Assembly: GCA_951812735.1 (NCBI GenBank)
Contig: OX638332.1
Coordinates: 1,469,928 to 1,533,927, forward strand
Source: Candidatus Dadabacteria bacterium
Lineage (GTDB): Bacteria > Desulfobacterota_D > UBA1144 > Nemesobacterales > Nemesobacteraceae
Direction of reading: 5' to 3'
DNA: 64,000 nt
Shown here one piece after another: positions 4,383-60,892 of this stretch. Each line of letters starts with the position of its first letter. The first letter of the stretch is position 1. Both the position numbers and the translations under genes were made by a program. The notes under the pieces are model-generated. The model did not search any database, was not told where the DNA came from, and saw only the letters and a program-made list of their open reading frames with translations.

Positions 4383-4420
4383 TGTTTACCTCCGCGTATC
4401 GGTTAAGCGGTATTCGGGAA

Positions 4421-4675
4421 TCACTTGTGAGTTACCGTGTATGGCAAAAGCGCCATGAAACGGGCTCTTTTTATTGCGATGGCCACCTTCCTCTGTTCCT
4501 GCCTTGAAAGCCCGGTGTTTCTCCTGGGCAGTATCTTCTTTCTCTCGGTTATGAACTGCGAGAGAAGTTCGGTGTCCTTGTAATCTATCTGCTTGCCTTC
4601 CTTGGCAAGGTCTCTGGGTTTTTTTCTGCGCGAGTAGAACCTTCTGCCTCCCCCGCCCATTGGTCTTCTGCTCAT
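4421..4675 (-). CDS. rpsR: 30S ribosomal protein S18
   Basis: 'RRFYSRRKK...[50 protein letters not shown]' is the S18 signature. The overlapping 182-aa ORF in another frame is rejected. Confidence 0.9.
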
Positions 4676-5250
4676 GATTCGCTGCCTCCCTCGGTCTGTT
4701 TTTCATTTTCCTGGGGTTGTTCCTGACTTTCCTCGGTCCGCTCCTCGCTTTCCTGAGCTTGCTCTTTGGCCTCCTGGGGCTGCTCCTCAACCTCCTGAGG
4801 CTGCTCTTTGGCTTCCTGGGGTTGCTCTGCGGTTGTGCTGCCTTCGGCCTGACTCTCTCGTGTGGAGGGAGGACTCTGAAAAGCGCTCTGATCCTCTGGT
4901 TCAGATGCCTGCGGAGGAGCGCTGATCGCGGCATCCGCTGGTTTCTGATCCTCGATGTATTTTACGGTCATGAACCGCAGAACGTTGTTCTTTGAGAGGT
5001 TAAAATATCTTTCTATGTCGGTTACGGCACCGGGGTCAGACGCATAAACGGCTATGTAGTAGGTGCCTCTGGTGTAGTTCTCTATTCTGTACGCAAGATC
5101 CCGTTCCGCCCATTTTTCGAATTTTATCATCTCCCCACCGTTTCCGGCCACGCTCTGCTCGACCCTGTTCTGGATCGTAAGAAGATCTTCGGGGGATATG
5201 TCCGGTCTTACGAGATAAAGCGTTTCGTACTTCGTTGGCTCAATAGCCAT
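4672..5250 (-). CDS. rpsF: 30S ribosomal protein S6 with long acidic repetitive C-terminal extension
   Basis: N-terminal '[25 protein letters not shown]...[15 protein letters not shown]' is S6. About 70 aa of E/Q/P-rich tail follow. It overlaps the rpsR start by 4 nt and there is no ssb/priB between them. Confidence 0.85.
4690..4860 (-). repeat. imperfect 18-bp coding repeats encoding (E-Q-P-Q-E-A/V-K/E-E) units in the S6 tail
   Basis: Direct DNA repeats 'ctcctg[ag]ggctgctc...' are visible. The protein tail reads '[25 protein letters not shown]'. Confidence 0.5.
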
Positions 5251-13986: not shown

Positions 13987-15348
13987 CTACGCACGTCTTC
14001 TCAGGAAAACGACCGAGAGTAGGACGGACGCTACCAGAAACAGGTTAAGCAATGCGCCTTGAGACGTATTGCTGGCTCCGGCGATGGTGCACGCTCCGTC
14101 GTTGCCGTCTGCCGGCGTGCTTTCAGGATAAACCCCGGAACCGAAAATGAAGAGCCATTCACCGGGGTGTGGCACAATCTGCGCGTTTAAGTCCGCTACC
14201 TCGATGTAGCTTGTCTTGGGTGACATGCCGGGAACCATCCTATCTTCGAACCACATTGCAGTTGGTGTATCTCCCGGTTTTAACCAGTGATATTCGACTG
14301 TGGCGGAAGCTCCGACTTCTACGGCCCCTAATTTTTCGTGAAACAGTCTCGCTATGTTCCGTTCACCTTCCAACAGATTATCATTCAAGTCAAGGTTATA
14401 GCCATTTAGGTCAAAGCTGGCTCCGTTCACAAGCACTGTGGACTGTGCTGGGTCTGCGTCCATTACGAAAGCATATATGCTTCCATACTTGAAATCCTCG
14501 CTTCCGAAACAAAAAAGCCGCTCTTGAATTCTTAAGGTTATGGGGCCCTGAACAAGGGCTGCCAGCGTCTGCCTGTCGTCTAAATTACTAATTGGGTCTA
14601 GAGATGGATTTGCGGCTAGCGCTTTGACAGCTTCTTCCTGTGATATCTTTGCTACGTCTTTTTGAACCGCGTCTATAACACTTTGTACGTAAGCTTGAAG
14701 CTTCGTGTGGTCCTCCTCAACTTGCGCAGCGGTAGTGGCAAGCTCGAGACCTTCACAGCCAGGAGGAACAAAGGCGGAGTCGTCTACCGCATGACGAAGA
14801 CCTACTATGTTTGTTACAGGGCTACCAGCAACGGTTTCCTCCACTTTGGCTGCACAGGCCACCCTTTCATTGTTCGGGCCGTAATCCACGCACACCGGAG
14901 GAGCCCCAATCGCAAGATCTTCATGGTCGAGTAAAGCTTTTAAAGTAGCTGCAACCGCCGAATCCATGGCATCCGGATTAAACCTGTATCCTATTCTTAC
15001 GGGATATCCCGCGTGATTCGTTACAATATTCCTGTCCGTTATGCCTATTGCGTAGATATCACCGTGCTTATAGTCTCCGCCATCTTGCCTGATGTTTCTG
15101 GCGAATATTGTCAGTTCTCTGATCAGCGCGGCGCGGTCATCCATGTTGTCGGTTCTAACATGTTCATAGTAATCCACAATACGATTAACAAAATCCGTCA
15201 TCTTCTGTTCATTCCCAGGATCGTCCGCTACATCTTGCGCGGTTATCGTACTGTCTCCGTGAGTGCCGGACGCATCAATGGCGAATGAAAAAACAAGCCC
15301 CAGCGCGAAAAACAGGCTCAACAGTATTCCGTGTGTTTTGAATTTCAT
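13987..15348 (-). CDS. secreted tandem Cache-like domain protein P2 with C-terminal Cys-motif/TM/RRR anchor
   Basis: Signal peptide 'ILLSLFFALGLVFSFAIDA'. 'IYAFVMDADPAQSTVLVNGASFDLNGYNLD' and 'VEYHWLKPGD...KTSYIEVADL...LFIFGSGVYPE' match the sCache_2 pattern. C-terminus 'GNDGACTIAGAS...LLNLFLVASVLLSVVFLRRRA'. Confidence 0.6.
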   Translation of the reverse strand: MKFKTHGILLSLFFALGLVFSFAIDASGTHGDSTITAQDVADDPGNEQKMTDFVNRIVDYYEHVRTDNMDDRAALIRELTIFARNIRQDGGDYKHGDIYAIGITDRNIVTNHAGYPVRIGYRFNPDAMDSAVAATLKALLDHEDLAIGAPPVCVDYGPNNERVACAAKVEETVAGSPVTNIVGLRHAVDDSAFVPPGCEGLELATTAAQVEEDHTKLQAYVQSVIDAVQKDVAKISQEEAVKALAANPSLDPISNLDDRQTLAALVQGPITLRIQERLFCFGSEDFKYGSIYAFVMDADPAQSTVLVNGASFDLNGYNLDLNDNLLEGERNIARLFHEKLGAVEVGASATVEYHWLKPGDTPTAMWFEDRMVPGMSPKTSYIEVADLNAQIVPHPGEWLFIFGSGVYPESTPADGNDGACTIAGASNTSQGALLNLFLVASVLLSVVFLRRRA

Positions 15349-15939
15349 TCTGATTACTCCTCACTGTGATTTTTGTTGTACCAATATTATAGTGCAAAAT
15401 TAATACTTTTCCGCATTAAATCATAATTCAAGGTAGTTATCCCTATAACTAGTCACTTGCTCCATCATATTATTAAGGAATTATTCTTTTAGGTTGACAG
15501 ATTACCGATTGAGCATCGCAGGCTGTGAAAGCTCCATACATCCTAGGGAGGATTGTATTCTATTGCTTAACTGCTTGTCAAGTAAAGGTTAAGTTGTTTC
15601 AGGGCAATACGGAACATCCAATCCTAGCAAGTCCTCCTCTCCATTCGGGTGAATGGAACTCTCAAACTTCCCCAACATGAATTCAGCCGATGAATTGCCC
15701 GCTTCCACGGGAAGCAAAGATGTCGCTGGGACGGGATGGCTCTGGGAATTTAAAGCACTACACTGCGGGTTCAAGGAGGCGATACGGGGTTTGTAGGGCT
15801 TGTAAACTTAAATCTGTACCCCTTCCTCAATCATTAGATCCAAAAACACTTGAATATTATACAAAAAACACTAGGGAGAGTGCCGTCCTCCAGCAACCTC
15901 CCTCCCTCATCTTACTTCTGGCTGGTTATAGGGGCAGTT

Positions 15940-16095
15940 ACCAAAAAAATCTATGTGGTAAATCCCTCAGGATTCTTGGAAGAGTGTCAGGATTTTTACT
16001 GCGGGCGGGTCCTGCCTCTCGTGTTTGATTTCCGGAGTCAACAAGAGGGTCGCGCTTTGCTGTTTTCCAGATCAGGCAGACAGCGCTTTTGTTGA
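15940..16095 (+). pseudogene. remnant of nucleoside 2-deoxyribosyltransferase-like gene (N-terminal fragment only; ATG replaced by ACC)
   Basis: 'KKIYVVNPSGFLEECQDFYCGRVLPLV' is paralogous to the N-terminus of the 17814..18275 gene. The reading frame terminates after about 50 aa and the remaining space is too short for a full gene. Confidence 0.35.
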
Positions 16096-16143
16096 TTCTT
16101 TTACTTTCTTGCTTTGAAGAGGATTAAGGTGTTTCGTAATGTC

Positions 16144-16204
16144 GAAAAAAAACTGGTTATCAAGGGCGACATCAACTCGTTTGTGAAAACCGCCCTTGAT
16201 AACC
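16144..16204 (-). terminator. rho-independent terminator of paralog P3
   Basis: 14-bp stem 'ggttatcaagggcg...cgcccttgataacc', followed on the minus strand by 'aguuuuuuuuc'. Confidence 0.6.
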
Positions 16205-16250
16205 AGCTATAAGTTCCGGAAAAAGCTTCCGGAAAAATTTTTGTTCCCAC

Positions 16251-17657
16251 CTATACGCGTCTTCTCAGAAAAACAACCGAGAACAGAACGGACATTGTCA
16301 GGAACAGGTTAAGCAACGTGCTCTGAGGCATATGTCCCGTCCCCGCGATTGCGCATCCGTCACCACCATCTCCTGTTGTCATCTCCGGCATCATCTCATC
16401 CTCAGGATAAGTTCCGGAACCAAAGATGTAGAGAAAATCAGGAAACATGCTATATCTAGGGTCCAGTTTCAAGACCTCGGTTATGTTCGCAACCTCAATG
16501 TAGCTTGTCTTAGGCGAACTGCCGGGAACCGATCCCATTTCAAACCAGCCGGGAATGCCATCGTCCGGATCATCGGGGTCGTCCCAGCGGTAGCTGACGG
16601 TAGCGGATTGTCCAGCTTGATAGGTTCCACTTCCGCCTGTCAATTCGTCGCGAAACAGGCTCACTATACTATCGTCAGTCCTTCCCAATTCATCGTCATT
16701 CACTTGAAGGTCAAGGCCGTTCAGGTCGAAGTTGTTTCCGTTCATAAGTACGGTGCCGGCCATATCCGTACTCATGATGAAAGCGTATATGTTCTTATGC
16801 TTGAAGTCCCCGCTTGCAAAACAAGCGATTGTGTCGAAAACTCTTTCGAATATTTTTGTTTGAAATTCGCCTGCCGCAGCTAACCCATCTGGATCTTGCG
16901 GATTAGTAAGTAGCACAAAAGACCGAGCCAAGAGACTAGCATTATCTGGATCATTAAATGCAGCATCAGTTGAATCTACCAGTAGCTGTTGAGCAGCCCC
17001 GATAATACCTTTTACGTAATCTTTAAGCTTATCGTGGTCGTTATAAACTTGCTCAGCGGTAGTATCAAGCATGAAATTGTTGCAGGCATCGGGAAGAGCA
17101 AAAGCAGCATCGTCTTCCGCGTGATGAAGGCCTGCTATGACTGTTATAATTCCGGAAAGGCTCCTTACTTTTGTCGCGCAGGCTACATTGTCCTGACCGT
17201 CATAATTTTCTTCACAATGTGCCATGTCGACATCTGAACCGTCGATTAAAGCTTGTATGGTACTCGCAATAGGTGTCCCGGGATCCGATTTAAGCTGGTG
17301 ACCGAGTAACGATCGGGAATATATAGCGTGATTCGTTACATATCCCCTTGAGTTTAAGGCCATTGAGTACATGTTGTTTTGGGTGTTTTTATAGGGCCCT
17401 TCTTCCCTGAGCCGCCTTCCATATATTGTAATTTCCCTGTTCTGCGCATCCGGGGCGCTATCGGCAATAACCTGATCGTAGTAATCTATTATATGACCAA
17501 GAAAGGCTTCCACTTCCGCTTTACTTGTAGGGTCGACGTCTCCCGCGGCTGTGCCTGTACCGTCCCCGTGACTGGCGGACGCCTCAATGCCGAACGAAAA
17601 AACAAGCCCGAGCGCAAAAAACAGGCTCAAAACCATTCCGTATGTTCTAAGTCTCAT
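16251..17657 (-). CDS. secreted tandem Cache-like domain protein P3 with C-terminal Cys-motif/TM/RRR anchor
   Basis: Signal peptide nearly identical to P2 ('MVLSLFFALGLVFSFGIEA'). 'NIYAFIMSTDMAGTVLMNGNNFDLNGLDLQ' and 'VSYRWDDPDDPDD...KTSYIEVANI...LYIFGSGTYPE'. C-terminus 'GDGGDGCAIAGTG...LLNLFLTMSVLFSVVFLRRRV'. Confidence 0.6.
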   Translation of the reverse strand: MRLRTYGMVLSLFFALGLVFSFGIEASASHGDGTGTAAGDVDPTSKAEVEAFLGHIIDYYDQVIADSAPDAQNREITIYGRRLREEGPYKNTQNNMYSMALNSRGYVTNHAIYSRSLLGHQLKSDPGTPIASTIQALIDGSDVDMAHCEENYDGQDNVACATKVRSLSGIITVIAGLHHAEDDAAFALPDACNNFMLDTTAEQVYNDHDKLKDYVKGIIGAAQQLLVDSTDAAFNDPDNASLLARSFVLLTNPQDPDGLAAAGEFQTKIFERVFDTIACFASGDFKHKNIYAFIMSTDMAGTVLMNGNNFDLNGLDLQVNDDELGRTDDSIVSLFRDELTGGSGTYQAGQSATVSYRWDDPDDPDDGIPGWFEMGSVPGSSPKTSYIEVANITEVLKLDPRYSMFPDFLYIFGSGTYPEDEMMPEMTTGDGGDGCAIAGTGHMPQSTLLNLFLTMSVLFSVVFLRRRV

Positions 17658-17813
17658 CCTGATAATTCCTCCCGTAAAAATTTTTGTTGTATTGTAACTG
17701 CATAGTAATGTAAAATCAGTACCTCTTTGTGTTGAACCATAACTTTAAACCAAATTGCAAGAGCAAAAGCAGGTCTTGGCGCAGTATTCGCTCCGGTGCC
17801 GCTAAAGCGTAAA

Positions 17814-18275
17814 ATGAAAAAATCCATGTAGCAGGTCCGCCTGGGTTCTCGGAAGCGTGCCGGGATTTTTACTGCGGGCGGCTTCTGCCTCTTGTTAGAG
17901 AACCCGGTTTTGAGATACCAGACTCGTGGGATGCGGGCATCGAGATTCCCGTTCCCGAAGCGAAAAAAACAGTTATGGGATAGCTTCAGCATGCTCGTCG
18001 GAGAAAAAAACAGAGAGGCGATAGAATCCTCAGGCAGGATGCTCGCCGTTTTGGACGGCACTGACGTCGACAGCGGCACCGCTTCAGAGACAGGCTGCGC
18101 GTTCGCCCTCGGAAAGAAGATTCTCGGCTGCAGGGGGGATTTTCGTCTCACGGGAGATAACCCAGGCAGCACCGTTAACCTCCAGGTCAAATATTTCATA
18201 CGAAAAAGCGGCGGCGGGATAGTGCGCTCCGTTGAGGATCTGGTTGACGCGCTTTCGGATGTTTTCTCCGACTGA
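17814..18275 (+). pseudogene. nucleoside 2-deoxyribosyltransferase-like gene disrupted by two single-base indels in poly-A runs
   Basis: Three frame pieces join to 'MKKIHVAGPPGFSEACRDFYCGRLL...EAKK|QLWDSFSMLVGEKN...LAVLDGTDVDSGTASETGCAFALGKKILG...', matching the PF05014-type motif. The frame breaks lie in A6 (17817-17822) and A7 (17963-17969). Confidence 0.55.
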
Positions 18276-18497
18276 TCTGCCTATCGTCCGCGGGTGGCTT
18301 CGTTTGACAACCCCGCCCGGTTCTGTAATCTAGATTCCCCTAGACTTTAAGACTCCGAGGCAACCAAAATAGATATTCTTGACGTCGTTTCCGAAAAACT
18401 TCTGGAAAAAGAAGAAGACATAACCTTCGAGGATGCCCTCGCGCTCTCAAAACTTCCAGCCGAGCGCCTATCGGAACTTATATCGCTTGCGAGAAAG

Positions 18498-19358
18498 GTG
18501 ACTCTCAAGTACAAGGGCGACGGGGTGTTTCTTCGCTCGATAATAAGCGCACAGACCGGAAACTGTCCAGAGGACTGCTCATTCTGCTCACAGTCGGCCC
18601 ATTTCGATACCGAGGTTGAGGCTCACCCGCTAATGGCGGCGGAGAGGATACTAGGGGCCGCGAGGCAGGCTGAGAAGATGGGCGCCATGGATTTCTGCAT
18701 AGTCATAAGCGCCAAGGGCCCGACGCCCAGGATATTCAAAAAGGTTCTCGAAGCCGTTGATCTTCTCTGCGCGGAAACTAACCTCAAGGTCGGCTGCTCC
18801 CTGGGGGATCTCACGAGGGAACAGGCCTATGAGCTCAGGGACCACGGGGTGTGGAGATACAACCACAACATCGAGACCTGCAGGAGCCATTTTCCCAGCA
18901 TATGCACAACCCACAGCTACGACGACAGGCTCAAGACCGCTCTTCTGGTGAAGGAAACCGGCATGAATCTCTGCTCGGGCGGCATACTCGGCATGGGGGA
19001 GACCATGCGCCAGAGAATGGAGTTCGCTTTCGAGATAAGGGACCTTAACCCCACGTGGGTTCCGATAAATTTCCTTGACCCGAGACCCGGAACCCCGTTT
19101 GAGAACCTTGAGACCATACAGCCGCTTGAAGCCGTAAGAACCATCTCGATTTACAGGCTCGCGCTTCCGGACAAGATAATAATGACTGCAGGGGGAAGGG
19201 AAGTTACGCTTCGCGACCTCCAGGCGATGGGTCTTGTGGCGGGGGCAAACGCCATGATCCTCGGCAACTACCTTACCACTCCCGGGCGCTCGCCTCGAGA
19301 CGACCTCCGGATGCTTGATGACCTGCAGATGCCGGTCAGGAAGGAAATCCTGAACTAG
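18498..19358 (+). CDS. bioB: biotin synthase (radical SAM)
   Basis: 'TGNCPEDCSFCSQSAHF' CxxxCxxC radical-SAM motif in a BioB-like fold. The annotated GTG start has no usable RBS and leaves the N-terminus short. The in-frame region back to GTG 18294 encodes a BioB-like N-terminus. Confidence 0.85.
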   Translation: MTLKYKGDGVFLRSIISAQTGNCPEDCSFCSQSAHFDTEVEAHPLMAAERILGAARQAEKMGAMDFCIVISAKGPTPRIFKKVLEAVDLLCAETNLKVGCSLGDLTREQAYELRDHGVWRYNHNIETCRSHFPSICTTHSYDDRLKTALLVKETGMNLCSGGILGMGETMRQRMEFAFEIRDLNPTWVPINFLDPRPGTPFENLETIQPLEAVRTISIYRLALPDKIIMTAGGREVTLRDLQAMGLVAGANAMILGNYLTTPGRSPRDDLRMLDDLQMPVRKEILN

Positions 19359-19429
19359 CCTCGTCCCCGCGATTTCGTTATATTCTTCCCACTAGGGGCC
19401 TCTTTCAAAACGGTTCCAGACAAACCAAG

Positions 19430-20788
19430 ATGAGTGACAGATCAAAACAGATAGGATCCTACGACAGGGAATTCGTCTGGCATCCGTTTACCCAGATGAA
19501 GGATTACGCGCGCACAGATCCCATAGTGATCGAGCGCGCTGAGGGCTCCTACCTAATAGATTCCGAGGGAAAAAGGTATATAGACGGCGTCTCCTCCCTT
19601 TGGGTAAACATCCACGGCCACGCGGTGCCCGAGATCGACGGAGCCATAAAAAAACAGCTTGAGCTTGTAAGCCACAGCACTCTCCTCGGCATAACCAACC
19701 CTCCGGCCGCCGAGCTTGCCAAGGAGCTTGTGGAAATCTGTCCCCCGGGACTCAAGAAGGTCTTTTACTCGGGCGACGGGGCAAGCGCCGTCGAGGTTGC
19801 GCTCAAGATGGCGTTTCAGTACTGGTCCCACAAGGGCAGGCCGGAGAAAAAGGCGTTTTTGTGTCTTGATAACGGTTACCACGGCGATACGCTTGGGGCC
19901 GTCTCGGTCGGGGGAATCGACATTTTCCACAAGGCTTTCTCCCCGCTTCTGTTCAAGACCTTAAGGGCTCCTTCCTATTACTGCTACAGGTGTCCGCTTG
20001 GAGAGACTTGGCCTGGATGCGGGATTGCGTGCGCGGATGAGATGGGGGAGATACTGAGGGAGAACCACGAGGAAATAGCCGCCGTCATACTTGAGCCGTG
20101 CGTTCAAGCCGCGGGCGGGATGGTGGTGGCTCCAGACGGCTATCTCGCGAAAGTGAGAGAGTACTGCACTCGCTACGACGTGCTCATGATAGTTGACGAG
20201 GTGGCTACGGGTTTCGGCAGAACGGGGAAGATGTTCGCGTGCGAACATGACGGGGTAACGCCCGACATGATGGTTTTGGGAAAGGGGATGACGGGGGGAT
20301 ACCTTCCGCTCTCAGCGACTCTGACGACCGACGAGATATACGAGGAGTTCCTTGGAGACTATGAGGAATTTAAGACTTTCTTTCACGGCCACAGCTACTC
20401 GGGCAACCCTCTTTCATGCGCGGCCGCGATGGGAAATCTCGAGGCTTTTAGAAATAACGACACACTGGACTCCCTTTCGGAAAAAACGGAGTTCCTAGAG
20501 AACGAGCTTCGTGAATTCGAGGGTCTCTCCCACGTCGGGAACGTGAGAAACAAGGGGCTTATGGTCGGAATCGAGCTTGTGAGCGACAAGAAAACGAAAA
20601 AGTCCTACGAGGCGGCTGAGAGAATGGGGTGGCGGGTCTCCGAAGAAGCTCTTTCGCACGAGGTTCTCATAAGACCGCTTGGGGACGTGGTAGTGCTTAT
20701 GCCTCCCGTGGGAATCGGGATGGACGATCTCGCGAAGCTTCTGCGGGCGACCTATCTCTCCATAAAAAAAATTACTGAAGAGGGTTAG
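19430..20788 (+). CDS. bioA: adenosylmethionine-8-amino-7-oxononanoate aminotransferase
   Basis: PLP aminotransferase class III with BioA-typical 'FVWHPFTQM', 'YSGDGASAVEVALKMA' and 'DEVATGFGRTG'. Confidence 0.9.
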   Translation: MSDRSKQIGSYDREFVWHPFTQMKDYARTDPIVIERAEGSYLIDSEGKRYIDGVSSLWVNIHGHAVPEIDGAIKKQLELVSHSTLLGITNPPAAELAKELVEICPPGLKKVFYSGDGASAVEVALKMAFQYWSHKGRPEKKAFLCLDNGYHGDTLGAVSVGGIDIFHKAFSPLLFKTLRAPSYYCYRCPLGETWPGCGIACADEMGEILRENHEEIAAVILEPCVQAAGGMVVAPDGYLAKVREYCTRYDVLMIVDEVATGFGRTGKMFACEHDGVTPDMMVLGKGMTGGYLPLSATLTTDEIYEEFLGDYEEFKTFFHGHSYSGNPLSCAAAMGNLEAFRNNDTLDSLSEKTEFLENELREFEGLSHVGNVRNKGLMVGIELVSDKKTKKSYEAAERMGWRVSEEALSHEVLIRPLGDVVVLMPPVGIGMDDLAKLLRATYLSIKKITEEG

Positions 20789-21984
20789 TGCGGATGGAAG
20801 CCCCCGATTCTCTTGAGTGGATAGAAGATGAGTTAAGGGCCATCCGGGGAAAGAATCTTTTCAGGACGCTTACGGAAATCTCCTCGGGCCAGTCCCCCGA
20901 AATACTGATCGGCGGGAAAAAGCACATACTCCTTGCCTCCAATAACTACCTGGGTCTTTCAACCGACCCGAGGGTGATGGAGGCGGCTGCCCAGGCCCTT
21001 TCAAAATACGGAACGGGCTCCGGAGGTTCAAGGCTCGTAAGCGGAAGCTCAGACCTTCACGCAGAGCTTGAGAGGAGGATAGCGGAGTTCAAATCAACCG
21101 AGTCAGCGATTCTTTTCTCAAGCGGCTATCTAGCGAATGTGGGAACGATCGCCGCGCTTGTCGGGGAAGGGGACACCGTGTTCAGCGACGAGCTTAACCA
21201 CGCTTCCATAATAGACGGCTGCAGGCTGTCGCGGGCCACGGTAGAGGTCTATCCCCATCTTGACACAGACGGCCTCAATCGCATGGTTTCCCGAAGTCAA
21301 GGTAGCGGAAAGAAACTCATAGTCACGGACACGGTGTTCAGCATGGACGGGGATCTTACGGACCTCGGGGAGATCTGCTCGATCTCAGAGCGCTACGGCT
21401 GCATGCTAATGGTGGATGAGGCCCACGCCATGGGAGTTCTCGGGGAAAAGGGAAGCGGGGCTACCGAGCATTTCGGGGTCGAGGACAGGGTTCCCGTGGT
21501 CATGGGCACCCTTTCAAAAGCCGTAGGTTCCGTGGGCGGATACGTGGCCGGCAGCCGAAGCCTAGTCGACTTCATCCGAAACAGGGTGAGAAGCTACATT
21601 TTCGATACGTCCCTTCCCGCGGCCTCTCTTGCCGCTTCAATCGAGGCGATCGGCATCATAGAGGGCGAACCGCAGAGAAGAAAGCATCTGATGGATCTTG
21701 TGGATACGTTCAAGGCGGGACTTTCCGACATTGGGTATAACGTGCTTCCGTCCCAAAGCGCGATCGTGCCCGTGTTGACGGGGGAACCGGAAGCTACACT
21801 AGAGCTGGCCTCGGCGCTTCGCGAGCGGGGAATCTACACTCCGGCCGTAAGGCCTCCCTCGGTTCCCGCCGGAAAATGCAGGATAAGGGCGTCGCTTATG
21901 GCTACCCACACGGAAGATCACATATCGCGGGTGCTTTCGGGGTTCAGGGCAGCGAGTTCGCTTGTGAGCAGCTCTAGTATCTGA
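20788..21984 (+). CDS. bioF: 8-amino-7-oxononanoate synthase
   Basis: 'LLASNNYLGLSTDP' and PLP-lysine context 'GTLSKAVGSVGGYVAG'. Overlaps the bioA stop. Confidence 0.85.
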   Translation: MRMEAPDSLEWIEDELRAIRGKNLFRTLTEISSGQSPEILIGGKKHILLASNNYLGLSTDPRVMEAAAQALSKYGTGSGGSRLVSGSSDLHAELERRIAEFKSTESAILFSSGYLANVGTIAALVGEGDTVFSDELNHASIIDGCRLSRATVEVYPHLDTDGLNRMVSRSQGSGKKLIVTDTVFSMDGDLTDLGEICSISERYGCMLMVDEAHAMGVLGEKGSGATEHFGVEDRVPVVMGTLSKAVGSVGGYVAGSRSLVDFIRNRVRSYIFDTSLPAASLAASIEAIGIIEGEPQRRKHLMDLVDTFKAGLSDIGYNVLPSQSAIVPVLTGEPEATLELASALRERGIYTPAVRPPSVPAGKCRIRASLMATHTEDHISRVLSGFRAASSLVSSSSI

Positions 21985-23073
21985 GGTTGTAGGTCTGCGG
22001 TTCCCGACAACCTTTAACGGGAACGGTCGGGACATCAAACAGGTTACGGACTATGAAGGCCTTTGGAGCTTCGATCAGTTCCCTGATGTCGTCTACAAAT
22101 CCTCCCGAAGTGGCGTAGCCCACTCCGTCGTTTGCAAGGTCGTGGTTTACGGTCCCGCCTGAAAACTCGCCGTCCCTCTGGGCCTTGACGATGTTGTAAA
22201 CGGCCGTGTCCACCCTTTTAAGCATCGAGGTCAGTATGTATTCCCGCACGGGTTCATCCGCGGTATTGTACTGGTCCGAGTCGACGCCTATGGCCCAGAC
22301 CTTGGAATTGCCTTGCTGCTCGCTGAATTCCCTGGCCGCCTCGAAAAGCCCCGCTCCCGAACTCCCGGAGGCGTGAAAAACGATATCCGAACCACCGCTG
22401 AACATGCCTTCCGCCACTTCCTTGGCCTTGTCCGGGCTGAAGAAGCCGCTCATGTCGGGTGGTTCGTCAGGATTCTGCGGGTCGGAGAACTGGGAGAGAT
22501 ATGCCGTTTCGACCTCAATATTCCTGTTAATCCCTTTTACCATTGCTAAAACGCCTGAGACGAATCCGGCCTCGAACTTTTCAATGAGCCTGTCCGGGGT
22601 GCCGCATCCCCCTCCTATGAAGCCCACTTTTCTTGTTCCGGTTACAAGAGCGGCCGCGACGCCCACGAGAAAGGAGCCCTCGGCCTCGTTAAAGACCAGG
22701 CTTGCGAAATTCTCTGGCGCGTTCTCTCCCCGCAGGATGTTTATACCCGAAAAATTGGTGTCAGGGTTGGCGGCCGCGATTTTCTTTATTGAATCCTCAA
22801 ATGAAAATCCGACAGCTATTACCAGATCATTGTCATCGGCCAGAGACTGAAGCAATTCCTCGCGGTCTGTTTCCGTTCCGTCGATCGTTTTTCGCTTACC
22901 ACAGCTCCGAGTTCCTCCTTGGCTCTTTTAATGCCCTCATAGGCAGAATCGTTGAATGATCCGTCACCTTTTCCCACGGTGTCATAGACAATTCCGACCC
23001 TGGGAACGCTCTTGTCTCCGGAACCGTCCTCATCGCCGCACGAGAGAAGTGCAAAAGACAGAAACAGTGCCAA
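21974..23073 (-). pseudogene. BMP-family (Med/PnrA-like) ABC transporter substrate-binding lipoprotein, frameshifted in a T3/A3 homopolymer near 22878-22880
   Basis: The N-terminal ORF (lipobox 'LSFALLSCG', 'VGIVYDTVGKGDGSFNDSAYEGIKRAKEELG') and the C-terminal ORF ('DLVIAVGFSFEDSI...') are contiguous BMP-family sequence. Adding one A restores '...VVSEKRSTERKTDREELLQSLADD...'. Confidence 0.7.
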
Positions 23074-42677: not shown

Positions 42678-44417
42678 ATGTGCACCTGTCTCCTGCGCCT
42701 CTCCCGTAGTTCCGCCCAGGCCGCAACGGGTCTTCTTCTCCTTCTTGCCGTCGTACTCGGCGCGCAGCCGGAGCCGGCCCACGCGCAGACCACAGCAACT
42801 TACACGGTAACGTTTGAAGGCAACTGGAACACCGACAGCACGCCCGGCGGGGTTGTGGGCGGCGCGCATTTCACGACGCTAATCGGCGCCGTGCATAACA
42901 GCGATGTGAGCTTCTGGGCACCGGGCGGCACGGCCACCGCCGGCGTTGAGGGGGTGGCGGAACTTGGCGCTACGGGCACGTTCAGGTTGGAAATCACCGC
43001 CGCCGGGGCAAACGTAAAATCCACCGTCCAGGAGAGTGGGACCGGCGCCACGGGCACGAGCACGTTCGAAGTCGAATTCAGCCGTACCCATCCCCTACTT
43101 ACCCTCTTGTCCATGATCGGCCCCAGCCCGGACTGGTTCGTGGGTGTCTCCGGTCTGTCTATGCTTGATGGATCGGATGCCTGGCGATCCTCTCACACGG
43201 TAGACCTGTTTCCTTACGACGCCGGCACGGAGGACGGTGAAGAATTTTCGCTGAACAATACCGCAACCAGCCCCCGGGGAACCATCACCAGCCTCGGGGG
43301 ACAAGGGAAATTCTCCGACACGCGCATGGCGAGGCTGAGTTTCACGCTTAAGACACCTTTGCCACCCCCCCCCACGCCTCCGTCTCCCCCTGAAGAAGAG
43401 ATATGCGTCGTTTCCGAAGTGACCGATGACCGGAGCCTCAGCAGATTCGTTGAGTGCGCGGCGGAGAACATAGAGGACTCTGTCACCTTTGAGGAGACAC
43501 TTAGCCTCCTTGACGAGTTCAGAAATGACGAAGGAGACTGGAATGACGGTTCCACTTACTTTGTTCTTCTCACCAAAGGAGGTGGGGTGTACTTCCACGC
43601 CCACGCCCCCGACAGGGAAGCGGAAGACCGGAGATGGTCAGGGACTGTCTTCTGTGACGAGGAGGGAGGAGACGTGCTTAACCTGCAAGCGGGAGATGGA
43701 TGCGCCATAGAGGGCGGCGGCTACGCCCATTCGTTCTCCGCTTCCCATGTTCCCCTGACCCGCGCCGGGGACGAATTCGTCCTGCTGGGCGGTTTCGACG
43801 AAACTCCCGAGGGGGAACCTTTCACGGAGATGATTGACGGACCCTCAACGGAAGCCGGGAATGTGGATACCGAAGAAGATCTGATGAAATTCGTGGGAGA
43901 GGCGGTGAAAGCCCTCAGGAAAACCGTAGGGGATCCTCTGATTGACCCCGTGCAGCTGCGGGGAGTTCTGAGACAGGAGCCGTGGAGAGAGGGGGAAGTG
44001 TATGTTTACATCATGGATGAGACTGGAAGGGTGATATTCGACGGCGGGGACAGGAGCAAGGAGCAGAAGCTAACGGATGATTCCGGAAGGGAATACGTCG
44101 TGGGGGAGCTTATAGCGGAGGGTGAAGAAGAAGTGGGGCACGTGGAAGGCGATTTCTGGATTTACGCTGAAAAGGTAGAAGAGGACAGTCGAATATACAT
44201 CGTGGGTTCGGGGTACCAGCCCGAGCCGGGTGAAAGCGGCGACGGAGGCGGGGGCTGCGCTGTCGGAGGGAGCGGTAGCGACGGCACATTCGGCCTGTCT
44301 CTTATAGCGTTGGCGCTGCTTCTAATAGTCTTGCTTAAAGACACTCGGCGTCAGGCAAGACGTATTGAGTTGAGGCGGGGTGTTGTCGCTTGTAACCGCT
44401 TAAGAGAAACGGAATAG
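42678..44417 (+). CDS. secreted Spondin_N + Cache-like domain protein P4 with C-terminal Cys-motif/TM/basic anchor
   Basis: Signal peptide 'LLLLLAVVLGAQPEPAHA'. Spondin_N hallmarks 'AHFTTLIGAVHNSDVSFW' and 'GPSPDWFVGVSGL...YDAGTEDGEEF'. Pro-rich linker. Cache-like 'VYVYIMDETGRVIFDGG'. C-terminus 'GDGGGGCAVGGSG...LSLIALALLLIVLLKDTRRQARR'. Start assigned to Met105 of the ORF. Confidence 0.65.
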   Translation: MCTCLLRLSRSSAQAATGLLLLLAVVLGAQPEPAHAQTTATYTVTFEGNWNTDSTPGGVVGGAHFTTLIGAVHNSDVSFWAPGGTATAGVEGVAELGATGTFRLEITAAGANVKSTVQESGTGATGTSTFEVEFSRTHPLLTLLSMIGPSPDWFVGVSGLSMLDGSDAWRSSHTVDLFPYDAGTEDGEEFSLNNTATSPRGTITSLGGQGKFSDTRMARLSFTLKTPLPPPPTPPSPPEEEICVVSEVTDDRSLSRFVECAAENIEDSVTFEETLSLLDEFRNDEGDWNDGSTYFVLLTKGGGVYFHAHAPDREAEDRRWSGTVFCDEEGGDVLNLQAGDGCAIEGGGYAHSFSASHVPLTRAGDEFVLLGGFDETPEGEPFTEMIDGPSTEAGNVDTEEDLMKFVGEAVKALRKTVGDPLIDPVQLRGVLRQEPWREGEVYVYIMDETGRVIFDGGDRSKEQKLTDDSGREYVVGELIAEGEEEVGHVEGDFWIYAEKVEEDSRIYIVGSGYQPEPGESGDGGGGCAVGGSGSDGTFGLSLIALALLLIVLLKDTRRQARRIELRRGVVACNRLRETE

Positions 44418-53116: not shown

Positions 53117-53198
53117 AAGGAGAGGCGTTTTTTATACGAAGAAAAAGGATGTGGTCTTGCGGGTCCGCATCCTTTTTTTTTTTGAAACTGCGGGAAAC

Positions 53199-53624
53199 AT
53201 GGCAAGCATAGAAGAGATAGTCAGAGAATTTCAAGGGGCGGACCGCCAAGGAATGATAGAGCTCCTGATAGATTATTCGGAAGGTCTTCCTGAAATTCCC
53301 AGAAGATTTGCCGAGCTTGCGGACAGGGATCTCAACAAGGTGCACGAGTGCGAAACTCCGGTCTTTATCTGGGTCGAAGTAAAAGACGGGAAGGCAAACA
53401 TATTTGCCGACGTCCCCGAACCGTTTCCGACTGTGAGGGGGCTTGTGTCGATTCTCGTAAGCGCTTTTGACGGACTCAGCCCGGAGGAGATCGAATCCGC
53501 ACCGGTGGACTTCATCTCCCGCCTCGGAATAGCCCAGAAGCTCGGGATAAGAAGGGTCAGGGGTCTCAGCGCGGTTTACGCGAGGATAAAAAGCGAGGTA
53601 AGAAGGCACGGCGCGGTCACATGA
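53199..53624 (+). CDS. sufE: SufE-like cysteine desulfuration (sulfur acceptor) protein
   Basis: 'VHECETPVFIWVEV' matches the SufE 'CQSxVWL'-type active-site region. Start placed at 'MASIEEIV'. Confidence 0.75.
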   Translation: MASIEEIVREFQGADRQGMIELLIDYSEGLPEIPRRFAELADRDLNKVHECETPVFIWVEVKDGKANIFADVPEPFPTVRGLVSILVSAFDGLSPEEIESAPVDFISRLGIAQKLGIRRVRGLSAVYARIKSEVRRHGAVT

Positions 53625-60313: not shown

Positions 60314-60892
60314 TCAGTCTCCCTCTTCCCCCAGACAGTCAATGGCTCCGTCCTCCGTGATTATGCGACCCGTCTTCACGTCGGTTTCGTGTGAAGGGAC
60401 GTTTTCCAGTACCTGGAAACGGTAGGCCAGTCCGAAGCGGATATGTCTGGGTATATCTTTTAAAAATCTGTCGTAAAAACCTTTTCCGTACCCGATTCTG
60501 TTTCCGGATAAATCAAAGGCCACCCCAGGAACGAGCACCAGGTCAAGTTCATCGCTGCGGGCGCATTCGGCGTCCGCCGGGGGCTCGGGGATGAAGAAGG
60601 TTCCGGGGGTAAGCTCCTCTATGTTTCTTGCTCTTAGGAAAACAAGATCAGAACCTCGGGTTTTCGGAAAAAAAACTTTTTTTTCAAGTTCAACGCATTT
60701 TCTGAATATTTCGCGGGTGTCGACTTCGCCGTTTATGGGAAAGTAAAGAGCGACGCTCGATGCATTGGCAAAAGCCTCTTCTGAAAGAAGAATCTTGAGA
60801 ATCAAGTCGGATTTTTCCTGTTGGACGGGTTGCGGAAGAGTTCTTCTTTTCTCGAGAAGATCTCTTCTCAGCCTGGTTTTTTTCTCAAGGAT
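60314..60892 (-). CDS. ygfA: 5-formyltetrahydrofolate cyclo-ligase (YgfA/MTHFS); 5' end uncertain, no in-frame ATG/GTG/TTG after the zapA stop
   Basis: C-terminal hallmark 'LVLVPGVAFDLSGNRIGYGKGFYDRFL' and a family-like N-terminus 'KKTRLRRDLLEKRRTLPQ...VALYFP'. The ORF-track version overlaps zapA by 180 nt. Confidence 0.65.
   Translation of the reverse strand: MLEKKTRLRRDLLEKRRTLPQPVQQEKSDLILKILLSEEAFANASSVALYFPINGEVDTREIFRKCVELEKKVFFPKTRGSDLVFLRARNIEELTPGTFFIPEPPADAECARSDELDLVLVPGVAFDLSGNRIGYGKGFYDRFLKDIPRHIRFGLAYRFQVLENVPSHETDVKTGRIITEDGAIDCLGEEGD

Follow-up and report, generated by a model that had tools for sequence, protein, structure and literature searches.

We report that the locus at positions 17,814-18,275 of the window, by which we mean the whole 64,000-nucleotide stretch of DNA that was analysed, is most probably a genuine and fixed pseudogene of the PF05014 family that was broken by homopolymer indels in a clade that is repeatedly losing this gene (rough probability 0.86). 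On this reading, which is drawn from sequence comparison, the ancestor of the pseudogene is predicted to have been a salvage enzyme of the nucleoside 2-deoxyribosyltransferase (NDT) family, whose coding sequence started ATG AAA AAA ATC with an A7 tract. Replication slippage may have taken out one A of this tract and thereby left a stop after five codons; the loss of the active-site Tyr and four replacements at positions that are invariant in six intact Dadabacteria-clade orthologues date from before or around this first lesion. Later, in the lineage of the window, a G-to-A substitution appears to have made a second A-run at codons 51-53, which would then have gained one A, and the full-length enzyme is presumably not made. 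Sister lineages are losing the same gene independently, through different lesions.

Three frame segments make up the locus (Table 1). The frame that opens with the ATG at 17814 reads ATG AAA AAA TCC ATG TAG. The second segment lies one base back, reads ...KIHVAGPPGFSEACRDFYCGRLLPLVREPGFEIPDSWDAGIEIPVPEAKK and then TVMG before its own stop, and no canonical start codon is present in this frame, which carries residues 4-52. After the A7 run the original frame resumes with the third segment, QLWDSF...LDGTDVDSGTASETGCAFALGK...VFSD (in full QLWDSFSMLVGEKNREAIESSGRMLAVLDGTDVDSGTASETGCAFALGKKILGCRGDFRLTGDNPGSTVNLQVKYFIRKSGGGIVRSVEDLVDALSDVFSD), which terminates at 18273-18275. With the A6 run lengthened and the A7 run shortened by one A each, the locus gave a 153-aa ORF with zero internal stops and with MKKIHVAGPPGF and PEAKKQLWDSF as junction peptides, and homology was present in all three segments in a tblastn-type comparison. 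The initial annotation of this DNA had held that only two 1-nt homopolymer indels break the frame, and this proved correct, as the repaired ORF is clean; the clean PF05014 protein that it expected was likewise recovered, with a length of 153 aa in place of the approximately 154 aa given there. A single uninterrupted ORF able to yield a full PF05014 domain is absent, and the two frameshifts are found in independent assemblies too. The exact 94-aa product of the residual ATG ORF is on record in other assemblies, where it is annotated as PF05014, and relatives (P0022, P0024 and P0029) also have 94-aa gene calls.

Table 1. Features of the PF05014 locus and its surroundings, in window coordinates.
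Feature	Position	Strand	Remarks
Nucleoside 2-deoxyribosyltransferase-family (PF05014) pseudogene	17814..18275	+	Three frame segments; 153-aa orthologue after correcting two 1-nt indels
A6 run	17817..17822	+	1-nt deletion from ancestral A7 (ATG AAA AAA ATC); creates TAG 17829-17831 in the ATG frame
CAT (His) codon at the conserved active-site Tyr (CtNDT Y7)	17825..17827	+	Y5H; profile alignment to 8PQP
A7 run	17963..17969	+	1-nt insertion; leads to TAG stop 17981-17983
Residual 94-aa ATG ORF	17991..18275	+	C-terminal 61% of the protein; reported as the gene by gene callers
GAG codon of retained catalytic Glu E92 (= CtNDT E88)	18087..18089	+	In DVDSGTASETGC; alignment with 8PQP
Orphan copy of the first ~80 nt of the PF05014 gene	15944..16022	+	80% nt identity; reads KKIYVVNPSGFLEECQDFYCGRVLPLV; ACC for ATG; tblastn E=2e-9
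468-aa protein, hydrophobic N-terminus	16251..17657	-	Divergently transcribed neighbour; paralogue of 13987-15348
bioB (radical SAM + BATS)	18372..19358	+	Conserved downstream neighbour; synteny in L001-L010
bioA	19430-20788		Follows bioB
bioF	20788-21984		Follows bioA

The lesions were traced through related loci. Assemblies of the same lineage were found by exact-protein look-ups of the window BioB and of the residual 94-aa ORF, among them L089 (ERZ23495228, 98.3% identical to the window over 5.2 kb), L091 (ERZ23495260, 99.4% over 6.3 kb) and L092 (ERZ15614330, 99.9% over 4.1 kb, on a NODE_..._cov_14 contig with SPAdes-style naming). These three metagenome assemblies come from different samples and align to positions 17600-18500 with zero gaps and with the same A6 and A7 runs; they are 4 to 89 substitutions apart from the window and therefore are not copies of one assembly. 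More distant carriers of the same ATG-A6-...-TAG start are L081 and L080, together with L088, which matches L080 in the compared region; these species-level relatives, which differ from the window by about 10-13% across the gene, derive from JGI sponge metagenome sample 3300002734 (contig prefix 'PetF'). L088 was the sole contig returned by a metagenome DNA-pattern scan for 5'-region alleles and, being identical to L080 there, does not count as independent. The A6 tract is identical in all six of these loci, and the A7 form is present in the intact orthologues L001, L002 and L093. At the second site, alignment with 16 orthologous loci showed the window to be one base longer than the intact orthologues and L081, with the run again identical in L089, L091 and L092. 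L080 also has an extra base at this site, but as GGAAAAAGG, which is probably an independent event. The intact length in L081 and the different form in L080 indicate that the A7 insertion is specific to the lineage of the window, where a G-to-A change in the ancestral GGAAAAAC would have given A6, to which one more A was added.

Pfam PF05014 matched the repaired translation at 45.7 bits, above its gathering score of 28.8 (E=8.3e-12; profile positions 1-116 of 117), and the C-terminal ORF alone scored 42.2 bits. In the same Pfam search (E<=1) PF15891 gave a sub-threshold match and the LOG family PF03641 gave none, while NCBIfam returned zero matches for the repaired protein and for its intact relative P0001. 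A collection of 5.8 billion proteins contained 2281 relatives of the repaired protein, the best of which, 153 aa long, match it over the full length at 71-83% identity (top match P0001, 83% identity, 100% coverage, E=4.9e-76); the best orthologues are intact and lie in MAG chromosomes of Dadabacteria or "Thermodesulfobacteriota". Together, the PF05014 match and the end-to-end 153-aa homology argue that the repaired ORF is not due to chance. The initial annotation had assigned the protein to PF05014, which both results uphold, and had added a SLOG/LOG-like label, for which no sequence-level support was obtained. It had also proposed a profile comparison of the repaired protein, and a profile built from 23 relatives matched the solved NDT of Chroococcidiopsis thermalis (CtNDT; 8PQP and related entries) at E=4e-19.

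Alignment with this enzyme placed the window's residues in the active site. In CtNDT, E88 is the catalytic nucleophile, D111 stabilises the leaving nucleobase, and Y7 lies 2.8-2.9 Å from E88, which it is thought to polarise or position (PMC10913048). The Tyr at the Y7 position is conserved in at least 90% of the orthologue alignment, and the window has His. The nucleophile is retained as E92, flanked by the replacements I93T and Y95C, and D115 of the invariant DN motif is retained as the counterpart of D111. The second active-site Asp, D62 in CtNDT, aligns with N66, which is invariant across the whole subfamily including intact members and thus is a subfamily trait rather than a sign of decay. 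All 38 family-invariant residues, E92 and D115 among them, are kept in the repaired ORF with no extra stop, which counts against a dead gene.

Other measures of decay gave a mixed picture. The A6 clade has fixed second-position changes (L10P, D74G, I93T, Y95C and Y106C) at residues that are invariant in six intact Dadabacteria-clade orthologues, and all of these except D74G are common to both representatives of the 'PANK' contig group; P38S, N59S and E126K of the window fall in columns that are at least 90% conserved. The dN/dS is 0.04-0.12 between intact orthologues versus 0.24-0.34 within the A6 clade. On the window's own branch, residues 4-85, which span both frameshifts, show 6 synonymous and 14 non-synonymous codon changes, a neutral-like ratio, and in residues 86-153 all 3 changes are synonymous. 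Counting against a dead gene, the window and L081 differ by 23.5 synonymous and 23.5 non-synonymous changes where neutrality predicts about 1:3, and on its own branch L081, in which A6 is the sole lesion, has 11 synonymous against 7 non-synonymous changes. A disabling A6 inherited by the window, L080 and L081 from a common ancestor should give a pairwise dN/dS near 1, and about 0.3 was found. Divergence between the window and L081 is mosaic (1% over the first 87 nt, 18-26% in the middle and 3-9% at the 3' end), and A6 may thus have spread by recombination or arisen repeatedly, which makes the age of the lesion uncertain. The most economical explanation is that homologous recombination exchanged the 5' segment with A6, or that A6 recurred at a hot spot, and on either view the lesion would be younger than the lineages; recombination is also the likely cause of the residual dN/dS of about 0.2-0.3 among A6 carriers. 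The locus had been offered, as one option, as a very recent pseudogene: the pseudogene stands, but "very recent" does not fit an A6 shared at 10-13% divergence or the changes Y5H, L10P, I93T, Y95C and Y106C. Polymorphism within the lineage, where four of five variants in the gene lie at third codon positions, was discarded as a test of selection, as it is uninformative: the strains differ in a mosaic manner (2.2-2.7% in bioB, 0.1-1% in the flanks), a pattern that suggests recombination.

Loss of the gene was seen repeatedly among the relatives. L080 carries a TGG-to-TGA stop besides A6 and its second-site insertion. L082, which shares about 91% identity with the intact HiFi-style contig L093, has A8 in the codon 2-4 tract and no other defect. 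L083-L087 (loci 'PANK22-1...'; Logan SRR18248206 / SRR18245564) have ACG for the start ATG and a 1-nt deletion in all, with an extra insertion in L083 and L084; they also have a new in-frame ATG five codons downstream (MVGRPGFSE...), which looks like a relocation of the start codon that preceded the later frameshifts. In L007 the start is lost, codon 2 is a stop and Lys replaces the catalytic Glu, and L008 is missing the first ~30 codons. The orthologues L001, L002, L005, L006, L009, L010 and L093 are in a single frame. By these alignments we count at least five independent routes of inactivation in the clade, two of them in the codon 2-4 poly-A tract, which we interpret as ongoing gene loss with this tract as a repeat target (A6 here, A8 in L082).

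Both lesions are 1-nt length changes in A-runs, a classic error type of several platforms, and the ORF is clean once repaired, as would be the case if the gene were intact and functional and the indels had arisen in sequencing or assembly. This option, which had been weighed at the outset, does not sit with the gap-free recurrence of both run lengths in three other assemblies from different samples, SPAdes-style contigs included, nor with A6 in the divergent contigs L080, L088 and L081 or the replaced active-site Tyr. Moreover, the window contains 96 homopolymers of at least 6 nt, 77 of which lie inside long uninterrupted ORFs (these tile 89% of the window and contain A8, T8, C9 and T11 runs) and leave them intact; with 0 of 77 shifted elsewhere, the assembly is not prone to homopolymer errors. 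The corresponding figure for the PF05014 gene is 2 of 4 (p ~0.002 by a hypergeometric estimate), and on the sequence evidence we regard an artefact as extremely unlikely. A gene that is still expressed would have to overcome its frameshifts through RNA polymerase or tRNA-Lys slipping on the A-runs (-1 at A6, then +1 at A7), or its codon 2-4 tract would have to be phase-variable and sampled in the off state. Slippage of Lys-tRNA or polymerase could in principle restore the frame at both sites, but the orthologues are single-frame and therefore offer no conserved shift, two successive low-efficiency events would be required in the window, and the homopolymer tracts known to slip efficiently are longer than the 6-7 nt found here. 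The codon 2-4 tract is indeed A6, A7 or A8 depending on the lineage, yet A6 and A8 need opposite shifts, and tract lengths are constant in four same-lineage assemblies up to 1.7% divergence, which argues against fast switching. The retention of every invariant residue and a dN/dS of 0.24-0.34 rather than 1 among A6 carriers speak for expression; the added TGA stop of L080 and the removal of an active-site residue by Y5H speak against it, as does a search of 15300-18600 with Rfam in permissive E-value mode, which gave no known RNA element around the shifts or within the conserved leader. Continued expression is in our judgement very unlikely. A broader proposal, that in sponge-associated Dadabacteria the poly-A tract works as a reversible on/off switch or as a site rescued by slippage, would imply that the A6, A7 and A8 alleles interconvert and would explain both the purifying selection (dN/dS about 0.2-0.3) and the kept invariant residues in frameshifted copies; we give it very little credence.

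The C-terminal ORF, starting either at ATG 17991 (94 aa) or at TTG 17892 (127 aa), might itself be expressed and retained for a function, but we hold this to be highly improbable. The ORF is open and is called by gene callers in several lineages, but such a fragment would lack the first strand and helix and the active-site Tyr/Ser region of the Rossmann-like domain and, judged from the fold, is unlikely to fold alone; the PANK-type relatives, moreover, are frameshifted within this part. Its dN/dS in the A6 clade is about 0.2 versus 0.3-0.6 for the N-terminal part, and both the absence of non-synonymous changes from residues 86-153 of the window branch and the third-position polymorphisms noted above point in the same direction. 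These counts are tiny, however, the C-terminal half is the most conserved in intact orthologues as well, and the low density of changes there fits the recombination mosaic. A promoter and terminator scan of 17600-18520 gave nothing beyond shuffled expectation.

Several further observations concern reading frames in the window. An antisense ORF at 17654-18199 (181 aa) was considered as a gene and rejected, as the intact orthologues L001-L008 have 4-7 stops in its frame. Two same-strand ORFs that overlap, 4386-4934 and 4672-5250, were likewise considered as a frameshifted pair; no sign of a break was seen, and 4672-5250 encodes ribosomal protein S6 with a tail. Some of the listed long ORFs contain unusually long homopolymers, at 53173-53183 (T11), 43365-43373 (C9), 60668-60675 (A8) and 60677-60684 (T8). 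In ORF 53151-53624 the listed GTG start precedes the T11 run by 22 nt, and the true start may lie downstream of that run.

Upstream of the pseudogene, between two paralogous genes, lies an orphan copy of its 5' end that keeps the A7 form of the tract (15943-15949) and that is also present in L080, L082 and L091. As the repeat families D1 and D2 show, it is the remnant of an old tandem duplication that took in the upstream gene and the 5' end of the PF05014 gene. The two upstream paralogues, at 13987-15348 and 16251-17657 (both on the minus strand), are arranged in tandem, are about 450-470 aa long and have hydrophobic N-termini; neither matched Pfam or NCBIfam. Their proteins share 31-59% amino acid identity with those of relatives whose BioB is 91-99% identical, which indicates very fast evolution, and they may be surface or host-interaction proteins. 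Imperfect inverted repeats of 24 nt (15432-15455 and 15919-15942, 75% complementary) flank 463 nt of the intergenic region, which is about 436 nt longer than its paralogous counterpart at 17658-17813, and the segment could be a small MITE-like inserted element.

Downstream, the order NDT, bioB, bioA, bioF is kept in the closest MAG chromosomes. The 42 codons upstream of the listed bioB GTG at 18498 (IDILDVVSEKLLEKEEDITFEDALALSKLPAERLSELISLARKV) are conserved at the protein level in all 15 related loci, and the GTG itself (ORF 18498-19358) is not conserved, with GTT, GTA or GTC in several loci. The upstream stretch (18360-18500) contains no ATG, GTG or TTG, has stops just upstream, and has a conserved GAGG 8 nt before a conserved ATA (18372); bioB probably starts in this clade at a non-canonical ATA or ATT codon upstream of GTG 18498. 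Between the NDT stop and bioB, an element of about 60 nt (18300-18360; GACAACCCCGCC.GTTTCTGTAA.CTAGATT.CCCTAGACTTAAGACTCCGAGG) is conserved across species-level lineages and contains the short palindrome TCTAG...CTAGA; it has no Rfam match and could be a bio operator or leader. Over 18498-20788, differences between the window and L089, L090 and L091 amount to 2.2-2.7% for bioB and reach 3.9% for bioA, against 0.1-1% in the flanks, with all bioB differences from L089 synonymous, which looks like a recombination patch over the biotin genes among strains of the same lineage. Beside the bio genes, 21974-22855 (minus strand) encodes a Bmp/PnrA-like ABC substrate-binding protein of a nucleoside-binding family; its best Pfam match comes in two stretches and begins only at profile position 61 of 301, which may mean an N-terminally short or divergent gene.

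Among genome records, the closest are MAG chromosomes of 1.5-2.3 Mb that carry the label 'Thermodesulfobacteriota bacterium' or 'Candidatus Dadabacteria bacterium', and sample labels suggest that the host, an uncultured bacterium, is sponge-associated. A literature search on Dadabacteria pseudogenes in sponges found nothing relevant. For annotation, the locus should read PF05014 pseudogene and not 94-aa 'nucleoside 2-deoxyribosyltransferase', and the gene calls of several public assemblies give only the C-terminal stump. The favoured explanation, a decayed PF05014 gene, is an ordinary one that opens no new question; as a small, clean case of parallel loss of a single gene in an uncultured clade, with a short poly-A tract hit at least twice, it bears on the paring-down of nucleoside salvage in these lineages.

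Compared with CtNDT (PDB 8PQP), a PF05014 protein of about 155 aa, the window gene is alike in size and in the region matched by the profile (residues 2-131), and the N-terminal (I/L)Y(I/L)A(S/G)P.GF motif, the nucleophile Glu in D.(S/E)G...E.G and the Asp of the DN motif all align. It differs in that its frame is broken twice and that the Y7 equivalent is His. The Asn in place of D62 is found throughout the Dadabacteria/Rokubacteria subfamily, whose intact members may therefore differ from CtNDT in chemistry; one source labels a relative '2-deoxyribonucleoside glycosidase'.

Frame changes on A-runs that decode as Lys-Lys are shared with known cases of programmed frameshifting and transcriptional slippage, such as dnaX and the poly-A frameshift rescue of endosymbionts. 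By contrast, the window gene has short tracts, would need two opposite shifts and has orthologues in which no shift is conserved, and Rfam detected no stimulatory structure in 15300-18600. Another parallel is the erosion of host-associated genomes, for example that of Buchnera, in which genes are inactivated by single-base indels in poly-A/T runs. The window differs from that pattern in its GC content of 52%, which is not AT-rich, in a host association that comes from sample and contig labels only, and in that the rest of the 64 kb is densely coding and intact and so gives no sign of general erosion there. What the two have in common is that the lesions are 1-nt changes in A-runs, that the gene was hit independently in related lineages, that the genomes of the relatives are small, and that the pseudogene persists with few further lesions.
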